From the NCBI RefSeq assembly GCF_017348835.2, contig NZ_CP071375.1: a stretch of DNA of 64,000 nucleotides. One strand, given 5' to 3'. Both the position numbers and the translations under genes were made by a program. Shown here piece after piece: positions 1,381-13,763 of this stretch; position 1 is the stretch's first letter; the number at the start of each line of letters is the position of its first letter. The notes under the pieces were generated by a model. The model made no database searches. It was not told the origin of the DNA and saw only the letters and a list, made by a program, of their open reading frames with translations. Origin of the DNA: Escherichia coli (GTDB lineage Bacteria; Pseudomonadota; Gammaproteobacteria; Enterobacterales; Enterobacteriaceae).

Positions 1381-2298
1381 ATGAATATTCGTGATCTTGA
1401 GTACCTGGTGGCATTGGCTGAACACCGCCATTTTCGGCGTGCGGCAGATTCCTGCCACGTTAGCCAGCCGACGCTTAGCGGGCAAATTCGTAAGCTGGAA
1501 GATGAGCTGGGCGTGATGTTGCTGGAGCGGACCAGCCGTAAAGTGTTGTTCACCCAGGCGGGAATGCTGCTGGTGGATCAGGCGCGTACCGTGCTGCGTG
1601 AGGTGAAAGTCCTTAAAGAGATGGCAAGCCAGCAGGGCGAGACGATGTCCGGACCGCTGCATATTGGTTTGATTCCCACGGTTGGACCGTACCTGCTACC
1701 GTATATTATCCCGATGCTGCACCAGACCTTTCCAAAGCTGGAAATGTATCTGCATGAAGCACAGACCCACCAGTTACTGGCGCAACTGGACAGCGGCAAA
1801 CTCGATTGCGTGATCCTCGCGCTGGTGAAAGAGAGCGAAGCATTCATTGAAGTGCCGTTGTTTGATGAGCCAATGTTGCTGGCTATCTATGAAGACCACC
1901 CGTGGGCGAACCGCGAATGCGTACCGATGGCCGATCTGGCTGGGGAAAAACTGCTGATGCTGGAAGATGGTCACTGTTTGCGCGATCAGGCAATGGGTTT
2001 CTGTTTTGAAGCCGGGGCGGATGAAGATACACACTTCCGCGCGACCAGCCTGGAAACTCTGCGCAACATGGTGGCGGCAGGTAGCGGGATCACTTTACTG
2101 CCTGCGCTGGCTGTGCCGCCGGAGCGCAAACGCGATGGGGTTGTTTATCTGCCGTGCATTAAGCCGGAACCACGCCGCACTATTGGCCTGGTTTATCGTC
2201 CTGGCTCACCGCTGCGCAGCCGCTATGAGCAGCTGGCAGAGGCCATCCGCGCAAGAATGGATGGCCATTTCGATAAAGTGTTAAAACAGGCGGTTTAA
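1381..2298 (+). CDS. oxyR: LysR-family oxidative stress regulator OxyR (305 aa)
   Basis: Protein begins [22 protein letters not shown]; the ORF-track start at 1351 is an upstream extension. Confidence 0.95.
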
Positions 2299-3681
2299 AC
2301 CGTTTAACGCAGCTACCCGATAGGCTTCCGCCATCGTCGGGTAGTTAAAGGTGGTGTTGACGAAGTACTCAATAGTGTTGCCGCCACCTTTCTGTTCCAT
2401 AATCGCCTGACCGATATGAATAATTTCGGCAGCGCGCTCGCCAAAGCAGTGAATGCCCAGAATCTCTTTTGTTTCCCGATGGAACAAAATTTTCAGCGTG
2501 CCCACGTTCATGCCGACGATTTGTGCACGTGCCAGATGTTTAAACTGGGCGCGGCCCACTTCATATGGCACTTTCATCGCGGTCAGCTGCTGTTCGGTTT
2601 TGCCCACAGAGCTGATTTCCGGGATGGTGTAAATGCCGGTAGGGATATCTTCAATCAGATGCGCGGTGGCTTCGCCTTTTACCAGCGCCTGCGCGGCAAT
2701 GCGCCCCTGGTCATAGGCCGCTGATGCCAGGCTCGGATAACCAATCACGTCGCCCACCGCGTAAACGTGCGGCTGTGCGGTCTGATACATGCTGTTGACC
2801 TTCAGCTGTCCGCGACTGTCAGTTTCCAGCCCAATGTTCTGTAACGCCAGCGAATCGGTATTACCGGTACGACCGTTGGCATAGAGCAGGCAGTCAGCTT
2901 TCAGTTTTTTACCCGACTTCAGATGCATGATCACACCGTCGTCACAGCCTTCGATCTTCTCGTACTCTTCGTTGTGGCGAATCACTACGCCACTGTTCCA
3001 GAAGTGATAGGAGAGAGAATCTGACATCTCTTGATCGAGAAATGCCAGCAGGCGATCGCGGGTGTTGATCAGATCCACTTTTACATCCATACCGCGGAAG
3101 ATCGACGCATATTCACAGCCGATCACTCCAGCACCATAGATAAGTACATGGCGCGGTTCGTGGTGCATGCTAAGAATTGAGTCGCTGTCGTAAATGCGTG
3201 GATGGGTGAAATCAACATCTGTTGGATGATATGGACGAGAGCCGCAGGCAATAACAAATTTTTCAGCGGTTAGTGTTTCAACGCTGCCGTCCGGGCAATC
3301 CAGCGCCAACGTATGCTCGTCAACAAAGCGAGCGTTCCCCTGCAATATTTCACAGTGATTACGTTCGTAAAATCCCTGACGCATGCGCGTTTGTTGATTA
3401 ATCACGTTATCGGCATGGTTAAGGATATCGGCAAAAGAAGAGCGGAGCAGTCGGGAATGGTCGCTGTATAGTGGGTTTTGATTGAATTCTATAATGCGGC
3501 TGACGGCGTGACGGAGAGCTTTCGACGGGATGGTGCCCCAGTGGGTGCAACCGCCGCCAACATTTTGATAACGCTCGATAACTGCGACGCGCGCACCTTG
3601 CTTAACCAGGCCCATTGCAGCGCCTTCGCCGCCGGGGCCGGAACCTATTACTATGGCATCGTAATCGTAGGAATGTGGCAT
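2281..3681 (-). CDS. sthA: soluble pyridine nucleotide transhydrogenase (466 aa)
   Basis: FAD/NAD-binding motif [12 protein letters not shown]; convergent with oxyR with an 18-nt overlap. Confidence 0.93.
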
Positions 3682-4010
3682 GGTAGGGCTTACCTGTTCT
3701 TATACATAAAAGCAACAGAATGGTAACATTTTATCGCGGGTAAGCCAATTGATCCCCGTCATTAATCTGGCTATAGCGTGAGCGGCCTTTGCTTTGTCTG
3801 CCTCCTTCTTAACTTATTTATTCACTATTAATCGCTTTTTCTTATGGCTGATAGTTTTATCTTGCCGAAGCGTGCTTTTTTGTTATTGTCTTTATGAAAT
3901 CTTCTTATAAAACAAATATATAAATATTTTATATTGATGGGTTATTTGTATTTATACCATCAATAAAATCCGTTAATTAGCCTGTTTATAAGTGAATAAA
4001 GGAATAGCCG

Positions 4011-5177
4011 ATGATCGAACACTATATTCGAGGGTTTGAGGAAGAACTGCGTGAGATCCGCCATCAGATCCACGAAAACCCGGAGCTGGGATTACAGGAA
4101 TTTAAAACCAGTGCTTTGGTAGCGGAAAAGCTGCGCCAGTGGGGTTATGAGGTTGAGCAAGGGCTGGCGACAACCGGCGTGGTAGCCACGTTAAAAGTGG
4201 GCGACGGAGAGAAAAGTATTGGCCTGCGGGCGGATATGGATGCGTTGCCGATTTATGAAAATAGTGGCAAGCCCTGGGCCAGTAAACATCCTGGTTTAAT
4301 GCACGCCTGCGGGCATGACGGGCATACCACCATACTGCTGGGGGCCGCGCGTTATTTTGCCGAAACCCGCCGTTTTAACGGCACGTTACGTCTTATCTTC
4401 CAGCCTGCGGAAGAGATGATTAACGGCGGTGAGATCATGGTTAAAGAGGGGCTTTTTGATCGTTTCCCCTGCGATGTCATTTTCGGCATGCATAACATGC
4501 CCGGTCTGCCGGTGGGTAAGTTTTATTTCCAGCCAGGGGCACTGATGGCGTCAATGGATCAGTTCCATATTACGGTTCGTGGTTGTGGCGGACACGGTGC
4601 GATCCCGCACAAAGCCATCGATCCGGTGCTGGTTGCCGCACATATCACTACCGCATTACAAAGCATTGTGTCGCGCAATGTCGATCCGCTGGAAGCGGCG
4701 GTAATTACCGTTGGCAGCATTGTTGCAGGGGAGGCGGCTAACGTCATTCCTGACAGTGCTGAGATGAAAATCAGCGTCCGCTCTCTTAGCCGCGATACCC
4801 GACAACTTCTTCTGACCCGTATTCCTGCTTTGGCACAGGCCCAGGCTGCCAGCTTTGGTGCTACGGCTGAGGTTACGCATGTTAACGGTACACCGGTATT
4901 AGTGAATGACGAGGAGATGGCGCGCTTCGCCTGGCAGGTGGCGTGTAAAACGTTTGGTGAAGATCGGGCCGAGTTTGGCATCAAGCCCCTGATGGGCAGT
5001 GAGGATTTCTCTTTCATGCTGGAAGCCCAACCCAAAGGCGGTTTCCTGTTATTCGGTAATGGCGATGTCGGGGAGGGTTCCTGCATGGTGCATAACCCGG
5101 GTTACGACTTCAACGATGCAAGTCTGGTCCCGGCAAGCAGCTACTGGGGCGCACTGGTAGAAGCCTGGCTGCAATAA
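4011..5177 (+). CDS. M20/M20D-family amidohydrolase (hippurate hydrolase / N-acyl-amino-acid amidohydrolase-like), 388 aa
   Basis: Metal-ligand context HACGHDGHT and overall M20D-like sequence; AT-rich upstream region; substrate cannot be told from sequence. Confidence 0.8.
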   Translation: MIEHYIRGFEEELREIRHQIHENPELGLQEFKTSALVAEKLRQWGYEVEQGLATTGVVATLKVGDGEKSIGLRADMDALPIYENSGKPWASKHPGLMHACGHDGHTTILLGAARYFAETRRFNGTLRLIFQPAEEMINGGEIMVKEGLFDRFPCDVIFGMHNMPGLPVGKFYFQPGALMASMDQFHITVRGCGGHGAIPHKAIDPVLVAAHITTALQSIVSRNVDPLEAAVITVGSIVAGEAANVIPDSAEMKISVRSLSRDTRQLLLTRIPALAQAQAASFGATAEVTHVNGTPVLVNDEEMARFAWQVACKTFGEDRAEFGIKPLMGSEDFSFMLEAQPKGGFLLFGNGDVGEGSCMVHNPGYDFNDASLVPASSYWGALVEAWLQ

Positions 5178-7693: not shown

Positions 7694-8794
7694 TTACTTC
7701 GCGGTCAGTAATACGCCGCACTCCATATGGTGCGTGTAGGGGAACTGATCAAACAGAGCCAGACGTTCGACCTTGTGCGTCTGGCTTAATGTTTCCAGAT
7801 TCTTGCATAACGTTTCCGGATTGCAGGAGATATACAGAATACGTGGATACGCCTGCACCATTTTCTCGGTTTCACTGTCCAGACCGCTGCGCGGCGGGTC
7901 GACAAAAATGGTTTCGCACTGATAGCTCTTTAAGTCGATCCCTTGCAGGCGGTTAAACTCGCGCACACCATTCATCGCCTGAGTAAATTCTTCTGCCGCC
8001 ATACGAATAATTTGTACGTTATCAATATGGTTAGCGGCAATGTTGTATTGCGCGGCAGCGACCGACGGCTTGGCGATTTCGGTGGCTAATACCCGATCAA
8101 AATTGCGCGCCAGGGCTAATGAGAAGTTACCGTTGCCGCAGTACAGCTCCAGTAAATCGCCTTTTGAGCCTTTGGTTACGTCCAGCGCCCATTCCAGCAT
8201 CTGAATATTCATCGCCGCGTTCGGCTGGGTAAAGCTGTTTTCTACCTGACGGTAGATCATCTCTTTCCCTGCGACCGGCAGACGTTCGTCGATGTAATCT
8301 TGATCCAGCGCGATTTTGGTTTTCGTTGCCCGACCAATCAGATGCACATTCAGATTCTGTGCTCGCAGTGCATCGCGCAGGGCTTCCGCTTCCTGACGCC
8401 ACTCATCATTCAGCTTTTTATGGTACAGCAAGGAAACCACCGCCTGATTACTCAGCGTGGTGAGGTAATCAATCTGGAACAACTTGTGGCGCAGAACGGG
8501 ATTATTACGCACACCCGCAATCATCGCCGTCATCAACTGGTTGATGAGTTCACTGGCGGCGGGGAAGCTATCCACGCGGATACGGCTTTTGGTTTGTTGA
8601 TCGAAAATGATGTGATACAGGTCATCGCCATCGTGCCAGATGCGGAACTCCGCACGCATCCGGTAATGACTGACCGGCGAGCGAAACACTTCCGGAACCA
8701 GGTCAGAAAACGGTGCCATCATACTTTGCAAACGTACCACTTTTTCGGCTAACTGCGCTTCATACTGTTCTGTTGGAAGGTGTTCGGGGGTCAT
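7694..8794 (-). CDS. trmA: tRNA (uracil54-C5)-methyltransferase (366 aa)
   Basis: Full-length ORF of expected size and position with SAM-methyltransferase features. Confidence 0.93.
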
Positions 8795-8921
8795 GATGTA
8801 TCCTGAAAAATTAAAGTACGCGGCGATTGTAGGGATTGCTCATCAGATGTCCAGATCTTGATGAATTCCTATTTGTGAGCTACGTCTGGACAGTAACTTG
8901 TTACAACCTGTAGCATCCACT

Positions 8922-9162
8922 TGCCGGTCCTGTGAGTTAATAGGGAATCCAGTGCGAATCTGGAGCTGACGCGCAGCGGTAAGGAAAGGTGCGATGATTG
9001 CGTTATGCGGACACTGCCATTCGGTGGGAAGTCATCATCTCTTAGTATCTTAGATACCCCTCCAAGCCCGAAGACCTGCCGGCCAACGTCGCATCTGGTT
9101 CTCATCATCGCGTAATATTGATGAAACCTGCGGCATCCTTCTTCTATTGTGGATGCTTTACA
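8922..9162 (+). promoter_or_regulatory. btuB leader containing the adenosylcobalamin (B12) riboswitch
   Basis: Leader reads GCCGGTCCTGTGAGTTAATAGGGAATCCAGTGCGAATCTGGAGCTGACGCGCAGCGGTAAGGAAAGGTGCGATGATTGCG...GCCGGCCAACGTCGCATCTGGTTC, the btuB B12 element; boundaries approximate. Confidence 0.85.
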
Positions 9163-11046
9163 ATGATTAAAAAAGCTTCGCTGCTGACGGCGTGTTCTGT
9201 CACAGCCTTTTCTGCTTGGGCACAGGATACCAGCCCGGATACTCTCGTCGTTACTGCTAACCGTTTTCAGCAGCCAGTAAATACTGTCCTTGCACCTACT
9301 GATATTGTTACCCGTGAGGATATTCAACGCTGGCAGTCGAAAGACCTCAACGATGTTATGAGTCATCTCCCCGGTGTAAATATCTCTCAAACTGGTGGAA
9401 TGGGGACGAGTTCTTCTCTTTATGTTCGTGGCACTGAATCGCGCCATGTTTTAGTGTTGATTGACGGTGTGCCGATGGCTCGTGCCGGTATCGACAATGC
9501 AATTGATATTAGCCAGTTCCCGGTATCACTTGTACAGCGTGTTGAATATATTCGTGGGCCGCGTTCTGCCGTTTATGGTTCTGGTGCCATCGGAGGTGTG
9601 GTGAACATTATTACAATGAGTAATGATGAGAAAGCTCAGATCAACGCAGGAATGGGTACAAATGGTTATCAAGCCTATGATGGGGTAATAAATAAACGTT
9701 TTGGCGATACGATGGTAACAGCAGCAGGTGCTTACCAGACGACCAAAGGTTTTAACATTCAGCCTGGCTCACCATACAGTGGTGATAGCGATCGCGATGG
9801 ATATCGCAACAAACTTTTCTGGGGGGGGCTGCAGCATAAGTTTAACGATAACTTCTCGGGGTTCTTCCGTGGTTACAGCTACACAGCTAATAATGATTAC
9901 GACCAGGGCTCGATGTATGGTTCTGCTACTGGCAACGAAGAAGCTCAGAATTACAACCAGTCCTGGGATACTGGCCTACGCTATAACTCCGGCATCTATT
10001 CGTCTCAGTTAATTGCTAACTATCAACGACTCAAGAATTATAACTACACAAATAATCTTGGTCGTTATGCGGGAGATGCCACCCTGGATGACATGGAACA
10101 GCGTTATATTCAGTGGGGTAATAGCATTGAGGTAGGGCATGGTGCAATTAGCGGCGGGATCGATTGGAAACAGGAAAAACTGACGTCCAGCAGCATTACA
10201 AAATCAGATGATTACGAACGCGATACCACCGGGTTATACCTGACTGGACAGCAACAGATTTCCAATGTGACTTTGGAAGCTTCTGGCCGAGAAGATCATG
10301 ATGAACAGTTTGGCTGGCATGGTACCTGGCAGACAGCTGCTGGCTGGGAGTTTATTGATGGCTACCAGGCAACACTTTCTTACGGTACCAGTTTTCTTTC
10401 GCCTTCTCTTGGACAGCAATACGGGGCTGCTCGCTTTGCTTCAATTTATGGTCCTGGTATTGCAGCCAACCCAAATTTGAAGCCAGAAGAATCTAAACAG
10501 TGGGAGATTGGAATTGAGGGGGTAACTGGGACTCTGGATTGGCGGCTCTCAGGATATCGTTATGAAATTCAGAACCTGATTGATTATAAAAGCATAAATA
10601 ATGTCAACCAGTACATTAATGTGAAATCAGCCACGATTAAAGGGCTGGAATGGACGGGAAATATTACAACCGGTCCTGTTGAACATCGCTTGACGTTACA
10701 ATATGTTGACCCGCGCGATGATGAAACAGATAAAGTGCTGTACCGTCGGGCAAAACAGCAGGTTAAGTACGAGTTGACTGGACAAGCTTATGGTTTCGAA
10801 TGGGACGTTTCTTACCAATATATAGGTCAACGATACGACAACGCTTATGACGAGACCTCTGGCTCATCACATACAGTTAAATTAGGCGGTGTGAGCTTGT
10901 GGGATCTTGCGGTTGCGTATCCGGTCACCTCTCACCTGACAGTTCGTGGTAAAATAGCCAACCTGTTCGACAAAGATTATGAGACAGTCTATGGCTACCA
11001 AACTGCAGGACGGGAATACACCTTGTCTGGCAGCTACACCTTCTGA
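9163..11046 (+). CDS. btuB: TonB-dependent outer-membrane vitamin B12 receptor (about 627 aa here)
   Basis: Signal peptide MIKKASLLTACSVTAFSAWA, TonB box DTLVVTA, C-terminal aromatic residue; ORF-track start 9118 is a leader extension. Confidence 0.93.
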   Translation: MIKKASLLTACSVTAFSAWAQDTSPDTLVVTANRFQQPVNTVLAPTDIVTREDIQRWQSKDLNDVMSHLPGVNISQTGGMGTSSSLYVRGTESRHVLVLIDGVPMARAGIDNAIDISQFPVSLVQRVEYIRGPRSAVYGSGAIGGVVNIITMSNDEKAQINAGMGTNGYQAYDGVINKRFGDTMVTAAGAYQTTKGFNIQPGSPYSGDSDRDGYRNKLFWGGLQHKFNDNFSGFFRGYSYTANNDYDQGSMYGSATGNEEAQNYNQSWDTGLRYNSGIYSSQLIANYQRLKNYNYTNNLGRYAGDATLDDMEQRYIQWGNSIEVGHGAISGGIDWKQEKLTSSSITKSDDYERDTTGLYLTGQQQISNVTLEASGREDHDEQFGWHGTWQTAAGWEFIDGYQATLSYGTSFLSPSLGQQYGAARFASIYGPGIAANPNLKPEESKQWEIGIEGVTGTLDWRLSGYRYEIQNLIDYKSINNVNQYINVKSATIKGLEWTGNITTGPVEHRLTLQYVDPRDDETDKVLYRRAKQQVKYELTGQAYGFEWDVSYQYIGQRYDNAYDETSGSSHTVKLGGVSLWDLAVAYPVTSHLTVRGKIANLFDKDYETVYGYQTAGREYTLSGSYTF

Positions 11047-11848
11047 ACCACGTCCCACCGTGCTGGTGTTTGACTCCGGCGTCGGTGGGTTGTCGGTCTA
11101 TGACGAGATCCGGCATCTCTTACCGGATCTCCACTACATTTATGCTTTCGATAACGTCGCTTTCCCGTATGGCGAAAAAAGCGAAGAGTTTATTGTTGAG
11201 CGAGTGGTGGCAATTGTCACCGCAGTGCAAGAACGTTATCCCCTTGCGCTGGCGGTGGTCGCTTGCAACACCGCCAGTACCGTTTCACTTCCTGCATTAC
11301 GCGAAAAGTTCGACTTCCCGGTTGTTGGTGTCGTGCCGGCGATTAAACCTGCTGCACGTCTGACGGCAAATGGCATTGTCGGATTACTGGCAACCCGCGG
11401 AACAGTTAAACGTTCTTATACTCATGAGCTGATCGCGCGATTCGCTAATGAATGCCAGATAGAAATGCTGGGCTCGGCAGAGATGGTTGAGTTGGCTGAA
11501 GCGAAGCTGCATGGCGAAGATGTTTCTCTGGATGCGCTAAAACGTATCTTGCGTCCGTGGTTAAGAATGAAAGAGCCGCCAGATACCGTTGTATTGGGTT
11601 GCACCCATTTCCCTCTACTACAAGAAGAACTGTTACAAGTGCTGCCAGAGGGAACACGGCTGGTGGATTCTGGCGCAGCGATTGCTCGCCGAACGGCCTG
11701 GTTGTTAGAACATGAAGCCCCGGATGCAAAATCTGCCGATGCGAATATTGCCTTTTGTATGGCAATGACGCCAGAAGCTGAACAATTATTGCCCGTTTTA
11801 CAGCGTTACGGCTTCGAAACGCTCGAAAAACTGGCAGTTTTAGGCTGA
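10991..11848 (+). CDS. murI: glutamate racemase (285 aa)
   Basis: Starts MATKLQDGNT inside the last 56 nt of btuB in another frame. Confidence 0.9.
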   Translation: MATKLQDGNTPCLAATPSEPRPTVLVFDSGVGGLSVYDEIRHLLPDLHYIYAFDNVAFPYGEKSEEFIVERVVAIVTAVQERYPLALAVVACNTASTVSLPALREKFDFPVVGVVPAIKPAARLTANGIVGLLATRGTVKRSYTHELIARFANECQIEMLGSAEMVELAEAKLHGEDVSLDALKRILRPWLRMKEPPDTVVLGCTHFPLLQEELLQVLPEGTRLVDSGAAIARRTAWLLEHEAPDAKSADANIAFCMAMTPEAEQLLPVLQRYGFETLEKLAVLG

Positions 11849-11869
11849 TTTGGTTGAATGTTGCGCGGT

Positions 11870-12095
11870 CAGAAAATTATTTTAAATTTCCTCTTGTCAG
11901 GCCGGAATAACTCCCTATAATGCGCCACCACTGACACGGAACAACGGCAAACACGCCGCCGGGTCAGCGGGGTTCTCCTGAGAATTCCGGCAGAGAAAGC
12001 AAAAATAAATGCTTGACTCTGTAGCGGGAAAGCGTATTATGCACACCCCGAGCCGCTGAGAAAAAGCGAAGCGGCACTGCTCTTTAACAATTTAT
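11870..12095 (+). promoter_or_regulatory. rrnB-type tandem promoters P1 and P2 with UP element and boxA antiterminator
   Basis: P1 TTGTCA (11894-11899) / TATAAT (11916-11921) with A/T-rich upstream; P2 TTGACT (12013-12018) / TATTAT (12035-12040); boxA TGCTCTTTAACAA at 12078-12090. Confidence 0.85.
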
Positions 12096-12221
12096 CAGAC
12101 AATCTGTGTGGGCACTCGAAGATACGGATTCTTAACGTCGCAAGACGAAAAATGAATACCAAGTCTCAAGAGTGAACACGTAATTCATTACGAAGTTTAA
12201 TTCTTTGAGCATCAAACTTTT

Positions 12222-13763
<1,542 letters not shown>

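Follow-up and report, generated by a model that had tools for sequence, protein, structure and literature searches.

Where does murI, the gene for glutamate racemase, begin, and where do its expression signals lie, if its reading frame opens inside the 3′ end of btuB, the gene for the TonB-dependent vitamin B12 receptor? The initial annotation of this locus had placed the murI start 56 nt before the end of btuB in a different frame, and had described the arrangement as known and conserved. Our best explanation, which we consider very probable, is a genuine overlap in which murI initiates at the ATG at 10991 and its initiation signals are written in btuB codons; of this explanation, we infer only the promoter component.

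A 56-nt overlap of btuB and murI and its conservation

We refer to the whole 64,000-nucleotide stretch of Escherichia coli DNA that was analyzed as the window; both genes, the riboswitch and the junction features described below lie on its + strand. Positions 10991-10993 read ATG, and positions 11044-11046 read TGA, the btuB stop codon. The open reading frame list ends the btuB frame at 11046 and the murI frame, at +1 relative to btuB, at 11848. Positions 9000-11900 are 100% identical to a record of E. coli strain PE164, in which RefSeq annotates btuB at 1664..3547 and murI at 3492..4349, equivalent to window positions 9163..11046 and 10991..11848, respectively. By this annotation the two genes overlap by exactly 56 nt (10991..11046), in full agreement with the coordinates of the initial annotation, and two further E. 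coli records, whose btuB alleles differ, show the same 56-nt overlap (three E. coli records were checked in all). The overlap contains the last 18 btuB codons and the stop codon, together with murI codons 1-18 and two bases of codon 19. Codon position 1 of murI is codon position 2 of btuB; each btuB third position is thus a second position of murI, which leaves hardly any overlap site where a change would be silent in both genes.

Both overlapping reading frames are real genes with identified products, and the overlap is a genuine same-strand, out-of-frame gene overlap rather than a gene-calling artefact. The identity of btuB comes from its RefSeq annotation and from relatives that carry Plug and TonB_dep_Rec Pfam domains. 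We took the annotated ATG at 9163 as the btuB start; the btuB open reading frame in the program-made list opens at a TTG at 9118, 45 nt upstream of this ATG and just past the aptamer of the cobalamin riboswitch that controls btuB (8908..9097; Rfam RF00174, 87 bits, E = 2.4e-21; also annotated in RefSeq). The 285-residue MurI protein of the window is 99% identical over 285 residues to E. coli MurI in PDB entry 2JFN (chain A residues 1-285, beginning MATKLQ; E = 8e-187). By sequence similarity it is a glutamate racemase (Asp/Glu racemase, PF01177), with a match that spans the whole catalytic fold, and an alignment of 98 sequences shows no variation at the catalytic cysteines C92 and C204. The window protein differs from 2JFN at two residues, 66 (11186-11188; Glu in the window and Ala in 2JFN, ...EKSE[E/A]FIV...) and 262 (11774-11776; Glu in the window and Gly in 2JFN, ...MTP[E/G]AEQ...), both of which are ordinary strain polymorphisms.

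The gene order in E. coli and Enterobacterales is trmA, riboswitch, btuB, murI and rrnB, with the 16S rRNA gene starting ~370 nt downstream of murI. An Rfam scan of 8700-12400 produced no hit at the junction, and its matches were limited to the cobalamin riboswitch, the beginning of 16S rRNA and, below threshold, Ysr197 (Yersinia sRNA 197). This last match, at 11847-12100, opens on the murI stop codon, falls in the spacer that precedes 16S rRNA (the rrnB promoter/leader region) and extends over the whole model, with 74.5 bits where the gathering score is 167 (E = 7.8e-17). The arrangement of btuB and murI is ordinary and common to E. coli and its relatives. The overlap is also already known: it is annotated in RefSeq and discussed in a TraDIS preprint, which also points out the lack of a btuB deletion in the Keio collection (10.1101/2025.12.01.691526).

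To follow the junction across relatives, we assembled 87 junctions from three families: the window, 80 Enterobacteriaceae genome loci (~35 genera) and six Morganellaceae/Yersiniaceae loci from Proteus, Xenorhabdus, Providencia, Photorhabdus and two Serratia species. A homology search seeded with E. coli MurI yielded sequences of ≥85% identity, all from Enterobacteriaceae, and nothing beyond the 80 genome loci; the distant junctions were obtained through a search of 50%-cluster representatives and look-up of the encoding contigs. In all six loci outside the Enterobacteriaceae, the order is trmA, btuB, murI and the overlap is annotated as exactly 56 nt, which bears out the description of the arrangement as conserved. 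Within the species, the 114-nt junction at 10937-11050 was found in 5425 of 5426 complete E. coli genomes, at ≥99% identity in 5303 of them. Two of the 5427 matches in this search lie on plasmids, and one genome gave no match although murI is essential. In Citrobacter amalonaticus AUH_CA_2023_1, btuB carries an internal stop ~180 codons before its end and the murI junction is intact; this btuB may be a pseudogene or reflect an assembly error.

Synonymous variation falls sharply toward the junction. Among the 81 Enterobacteriaceae sequences, btuB third positions have an entropy of 1.1-1.5 bits before 10941, which drops to 0.30 bits across 10942-10990 and to 0.15 bits within the overlap, where the nucleotides are near-invariant; for murI the corresponding values are 0.08 bits in the overlap and 0.8-1.5 bits downstream. 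These contrasts give Mann-Whitney p-values of ~1e-9 to 1e-11 that are uncorrected for phylogeny and inflated by the relatedness of the 87 sequences.

The initial annotation had held the C-terminal codons of btuB and the N-terminal codons of murI to be mutually constrained. Within the Enterobacteriaceae, the BtuB and MurI peptides encoded by the overlap are both nearly invariant. Between families, the constraint is lopsided: in an alignment of seven family-level junctions, the BtuB C-terminus is kept as ...RG(K/R)IANLFDKDYET(A/V)YGY.T.GREY.L(S/T)GSY(T/N)F, while MurI residues 1-22 diverge strongly, shifting from MATKLQDGNTPCLAATPSEP to, for example, MVIAPLEENISLQEATTSDNN. Judged from these sequences, the constraint on the overlap is asymmetric, with the BtuB sequence as the older and dominant constraint and the MurI tail drifting. 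The btuB stop codon itself varies, being TAA in 13 of the 87 relatives, which alters MurI residue 19.

The murI start codon and the MurI N-terminal tail

The ATG at 10991..10993, formed by btuB TAT-GGC, is invariant in all 87 junctions, the outcome of aligning the enterobacterial btuB-murI junctions as had been proposed. The Tyr codon of btuB from which this ATG takes its A and T is likewise TAT in 87/87, whereas neighboring btuB Tyr codons are TAC in 80-95% of the junctions (79-83 of 87 for four of them). A Tyr codon fixed as TAT amid TAC-preferring neighbors testifies directly to selection for the murI ATG, and the start is thus conserved beyond the need of the btuB frame. Database MurI proteins of the sampled taxa all begin at this same ATG, and their length differences are C-terminal. 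Based on this comparative evidence, we assign the murI start to the ATG at 10991. The N-terminus in 2JFN reflects the depositors' construct and not necessarily that of native MurI, and a search of published N-terminomics and ribosome-profiling supplements found no murI entry.

Since this start lies within btuB, all murI initiation signals would be written in btuB codons. A weak Shine-Dalgarno-like GAGA lies 6 nt upstream of the ATG (10981..10984), in part within a btuB GAG codon (10981-10983) that is invariant in 87/87; its predicted pairing with the anti-Shine-Dalgarno sequence, -2.7 kcal/mol, is about the average of random window positions. We found no special RNA structure near the start, with folds of 10931-11070 and 10961-11030 giving z = -0.41 and +0.74, respectively, against shuffled sequences. 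The proposal that murI initiation depends on sequence inside btuB is upheld by the origin of the ATG in TAT-GGC and by a synonymous constraint that extends ~50 nt further upstream.

The MurI open frame contains one further ATG inside btuB, at 10979..10981, 12 nt upstream of the assigned start and created by a TAT Tyr codon of btuB. It is absent in 78 of the 80 Enterobacteriaceae genome loci and present in most Morganellaceae/Yersiniaceae loci. Initiation here would give a 289-residue protein (MRQSMATKLQ...) and a 68-nt overlap. This is the first ATG of the murI open frame in the window; it occurs in the E. coli records that were checked, in Proteus, Xenorhabdus and Providencia and in both Serratia species, and the original 1992 description of murI reportedly predicted 289 residues, the count for this ATG. 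Against it, 80 of 87 relatives read ACG at this site, since btuB there mostly encodes its Tyr as TAC; the best anti-Shine-Dalgarno pairing of this ATG is only -0.9 kcal/mol; and MurI has 285 residues both in RefSeq and in the PDB entry. We therefore reject ATG 10979 as the murI start and consider it very improbable.

We give just as little credence to the opposite reading, in which there is no real coding overlap: MurI would start beyond the btuB stop, for example at the GTG codons at 11060/11066, and the annotated N-terminal 18-23 residues would be untranslated or dispensable. Several features of the MurI N-terminus do fit such a start. In the AlphaFold model (mean pLDDT 94), residues 1-12 have pLDDT below 50 and are predicted to be disordered; the N-termini of other MurI proteins are mostly far shorter; and the tail diverges between families. 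TraDIS also recovered Tn5 insertions within the overlap, for which the authors suggest an alternative start (10.1101/2025.12.01.691526). The 10-fold orientation bias of those insertions fits better with transposon-driven expression than with a native internal start, and the downstream codons fare poorly on conservation and Shine-Dalgarno pairing, on which grounds we rejected the GTG and TTG candidates. GTG 11060/11066 is start-capable in only ~73% of Enterobacteriaceae and shows no Shine-Dalgarno pairing (+0.4 kcal/mol), murI codon 24 is ATT in Xenorhabdus and Providencia, and the next candidate, TTG 11090, falls inside the conserved DSGVGGL motif. Among the 87 junctions there is no conserved murI start codon downstream of 11046, in contrast to ATG 10991, which is invariant against codon preference. 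A start past 11046, named by the initial annotation as the finding that would overturn its reading, thus gains no support.

With initiation at ATG 10991, the tail encoded by the overlap sets this MurI apart from other racemases. Similarity of the window protein to 15 other solved racemases (E = 1e-22 to 1e-31) does not set in until about residue 24 (VLVFDSG...), and the first strand of the AlphaFold model begins at residue 21. In MurI proteins from overlap-bearing loci, 26-30 residues precede the xDSGxGG motif, versus a median of 12 among 81 other representatives, and MurI relatives at ~50% identity have neither an upstream btuB nor the N-terminal extension. The overlap-encoded tail (~18 residues) is lineage-specific and probably disordered. 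In our best explanation, the shared 56 nt encode both the last β-strand of the BtuB barrel, up to its C-terminal Phe, and this ~18-residue tail, an extension of murI into btuB that is missing from other glutamate racemases and drifts between families.

Constrained btuB codons and a candidate murI promoter

Synonymous-site conservation sets in ~50 nt upstream of the murI ATG, in a btuB block (10942..10990) in which third-position variation is suppressed. Across the 87 sequences, three consecutive codons in this block (10945-10953) have invariant third positions, CGT, GGT/GCT and AAA/AGA; the other invariant btuB third positions are those of CTG, the GAG codon at the Shine-Dalgarno-like element and the TAT codon at the start and, within the overlap, those of ACC (11020-11022), the final TTC and the stop codon. 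In TGGTAAAAT (10947..10955), an extended -10-like motif 36-44 nt upstream of the murI ATG, the three consecutive sites provide the T of TG and the first T and fourth A of the hexamer. This motif matches the extended -10 pattern of sigma-70 promoters, with TGn directly 5′ of a near-TATAAT hexamer, and TG[G/C]TA[A/G]AAT persists across all seven of the family-level junctions despite the residue changes Gly to Ala and Lys to Arg. As a motif alone it is not enriched: TGNTANAAT occurs seven times in the window, equal to chance expectation. A -35/-10 promoter scan of the + strand near the junction called nothing, because the candidate has no -35 match. We searched the supplements of published transcription-start, 3′-end and promoter studies and found no murI transcription start.

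From this pattern of conserved sites, we infer a murI promoter and leader within btuB that would be independent of the riboswitch, with transcription putatively starting at ~10960-10965 and a leader of ~26-31 nt. In the proposed mechanism, initiation would draw on the ATG, the weak GAGA and the putative extended -10 promoter TGGTAAAAT, which would allow expression of the essential murI gene independently of the riboswitch-controlled btuB promoter, and read-through from the btuB promoter also occurs, the two genes being reported as an operon. Published genetics fit such a promoter. Cells survive transposon insertions in btuB, as well as loss of 1 kb from its 5′ end together with its ATG, despite their need for murI, and the only insertions for which an orientation bias is reported are those in the overlap (10.1101/2025.12.01.691526). 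The tolerance of btuB insertions, this bias and the need to escape B12 control are all consistent with the candidate promoter.

Alternatively, murI may have no promoter of its own and depend on btuB read-through and translational coupling only, with the conserved block reflecting constraint on the BtuB protein. We consider this unlikely, yet it deserves serious weight. A btuB-murI co-transcript has been reported and described as an operon, and btuB promoter mutations raise the measured transcript ~300-fold (PMC10802341). The candidate promoter has no -35 element, and the BtuB residues of the upstream block are highly conserved; nucleotide conservation upstream of the ATG could come in part from BtuB amino-acid constraint and codon preference. 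Protein constraint fails, however, to explain the invariant third positions: as a background, none of the 113 invariant amino-acid columns with degenerate codons in murI downstream of the overlap keeps a single codon. The tolerated btuB insertions and 1-kb deletion argue against read-through as the only source of murI transcript, and an essential gene placed solely behind a B12-repressed riboswitch would itself be B12-repressed, as judged from the known behavior of the btuB riboswitch. As for coupling, the btuB stop codon at 11044-11046 lies 53 nt past the murI ATG, so that termination-reinitiation from btuB to murI, as normally defined, is impossible.

The window btuB is a minority mosaic allele, and only 372 of the 5426 complete E. 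coli genomes match ≥80% of 9000-11900. Its central 1.6 kb (9250-10936) shares only ~55% identity with either the common K-12-like allele or a third class of alleles, but 77-79% with btuB of Citrobacter, Kluyvera and Salmonella. The three E. coli allele classes are identical at ~9250 and again from ~10887-10937, just upstream of the murI signals. Constraint on the silent sites there would explain why these divergent alleles converge just upstream of murI.

More broadly, positions 10942-11046 (~105 nt) could form an order-wide conserved murI expression module that is embedded in BtuB strand codons, acts independently of the riboswitch and also marks a boundary for btuB allele swaps. Such a module may consist of the extended -10 promoter, a short leader, the weak ribosome-binding site, the start codon and the disordered tail, and may serve as a fixed downstream boundary for recombinational exchange of divergent E. 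coli btuB alleles. We put this wider proposal forward tentatively, as one that is finely balanced and leans slightly toward the negative.

Consequences and comparison with known systems

The overlap has practical consequences for work on btuB that are already recognized. A clean btuB deletion is lethal, in keeping with the missing Keio mutant; transposon and phage-receptor screens flag murI falsely; and changes to the BtuB C-terminus, whether engineered or natural, also edit MurI and its expression signals. Our analysis adds that the silent sites of ~16 more btuB codons upstream of the overlap are constrained, most simply, on the evidence of their sequence conservation, by a murI promoter and leader. 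Any recoding or truncation of btuB should respect these codons.

Compared with the junction of E. coli K-12 and Enterobacterales in general, the window has the same genes in the same order, the same 56-nt overlap and the same start codon. Its junction sequence is identical to that of records with K-12-like btuB alleles; the difference from K-12 lies further upstream, where the window btuB before ~10887-10936 belongs to the minority, highly divergent class. With internal operon promoters located in an upstream coding sequence, the junction shares a TGn-extended, -10-like element 36-44 nt before the murI start whose key bases are fixed synonymously; it differs from them in that the murI candidate has no -35 element and is known here from its sequence.

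Bacterial gene overlaps usually measure 1 or 4 nt, and 56 nt is far longer. The closest likeness is to overlaps that arise when a downstream gene acquires an N-terminal extension (overprinting). As in those cases, the murI start lies inside the upstream gene, and the extension, which is restricted to certain lineages and predicted to be disordered, shows less conservation than the older frame. Unlike recent or annotation-derived extensions, the btuB-murI overlap is stable over at least three families.
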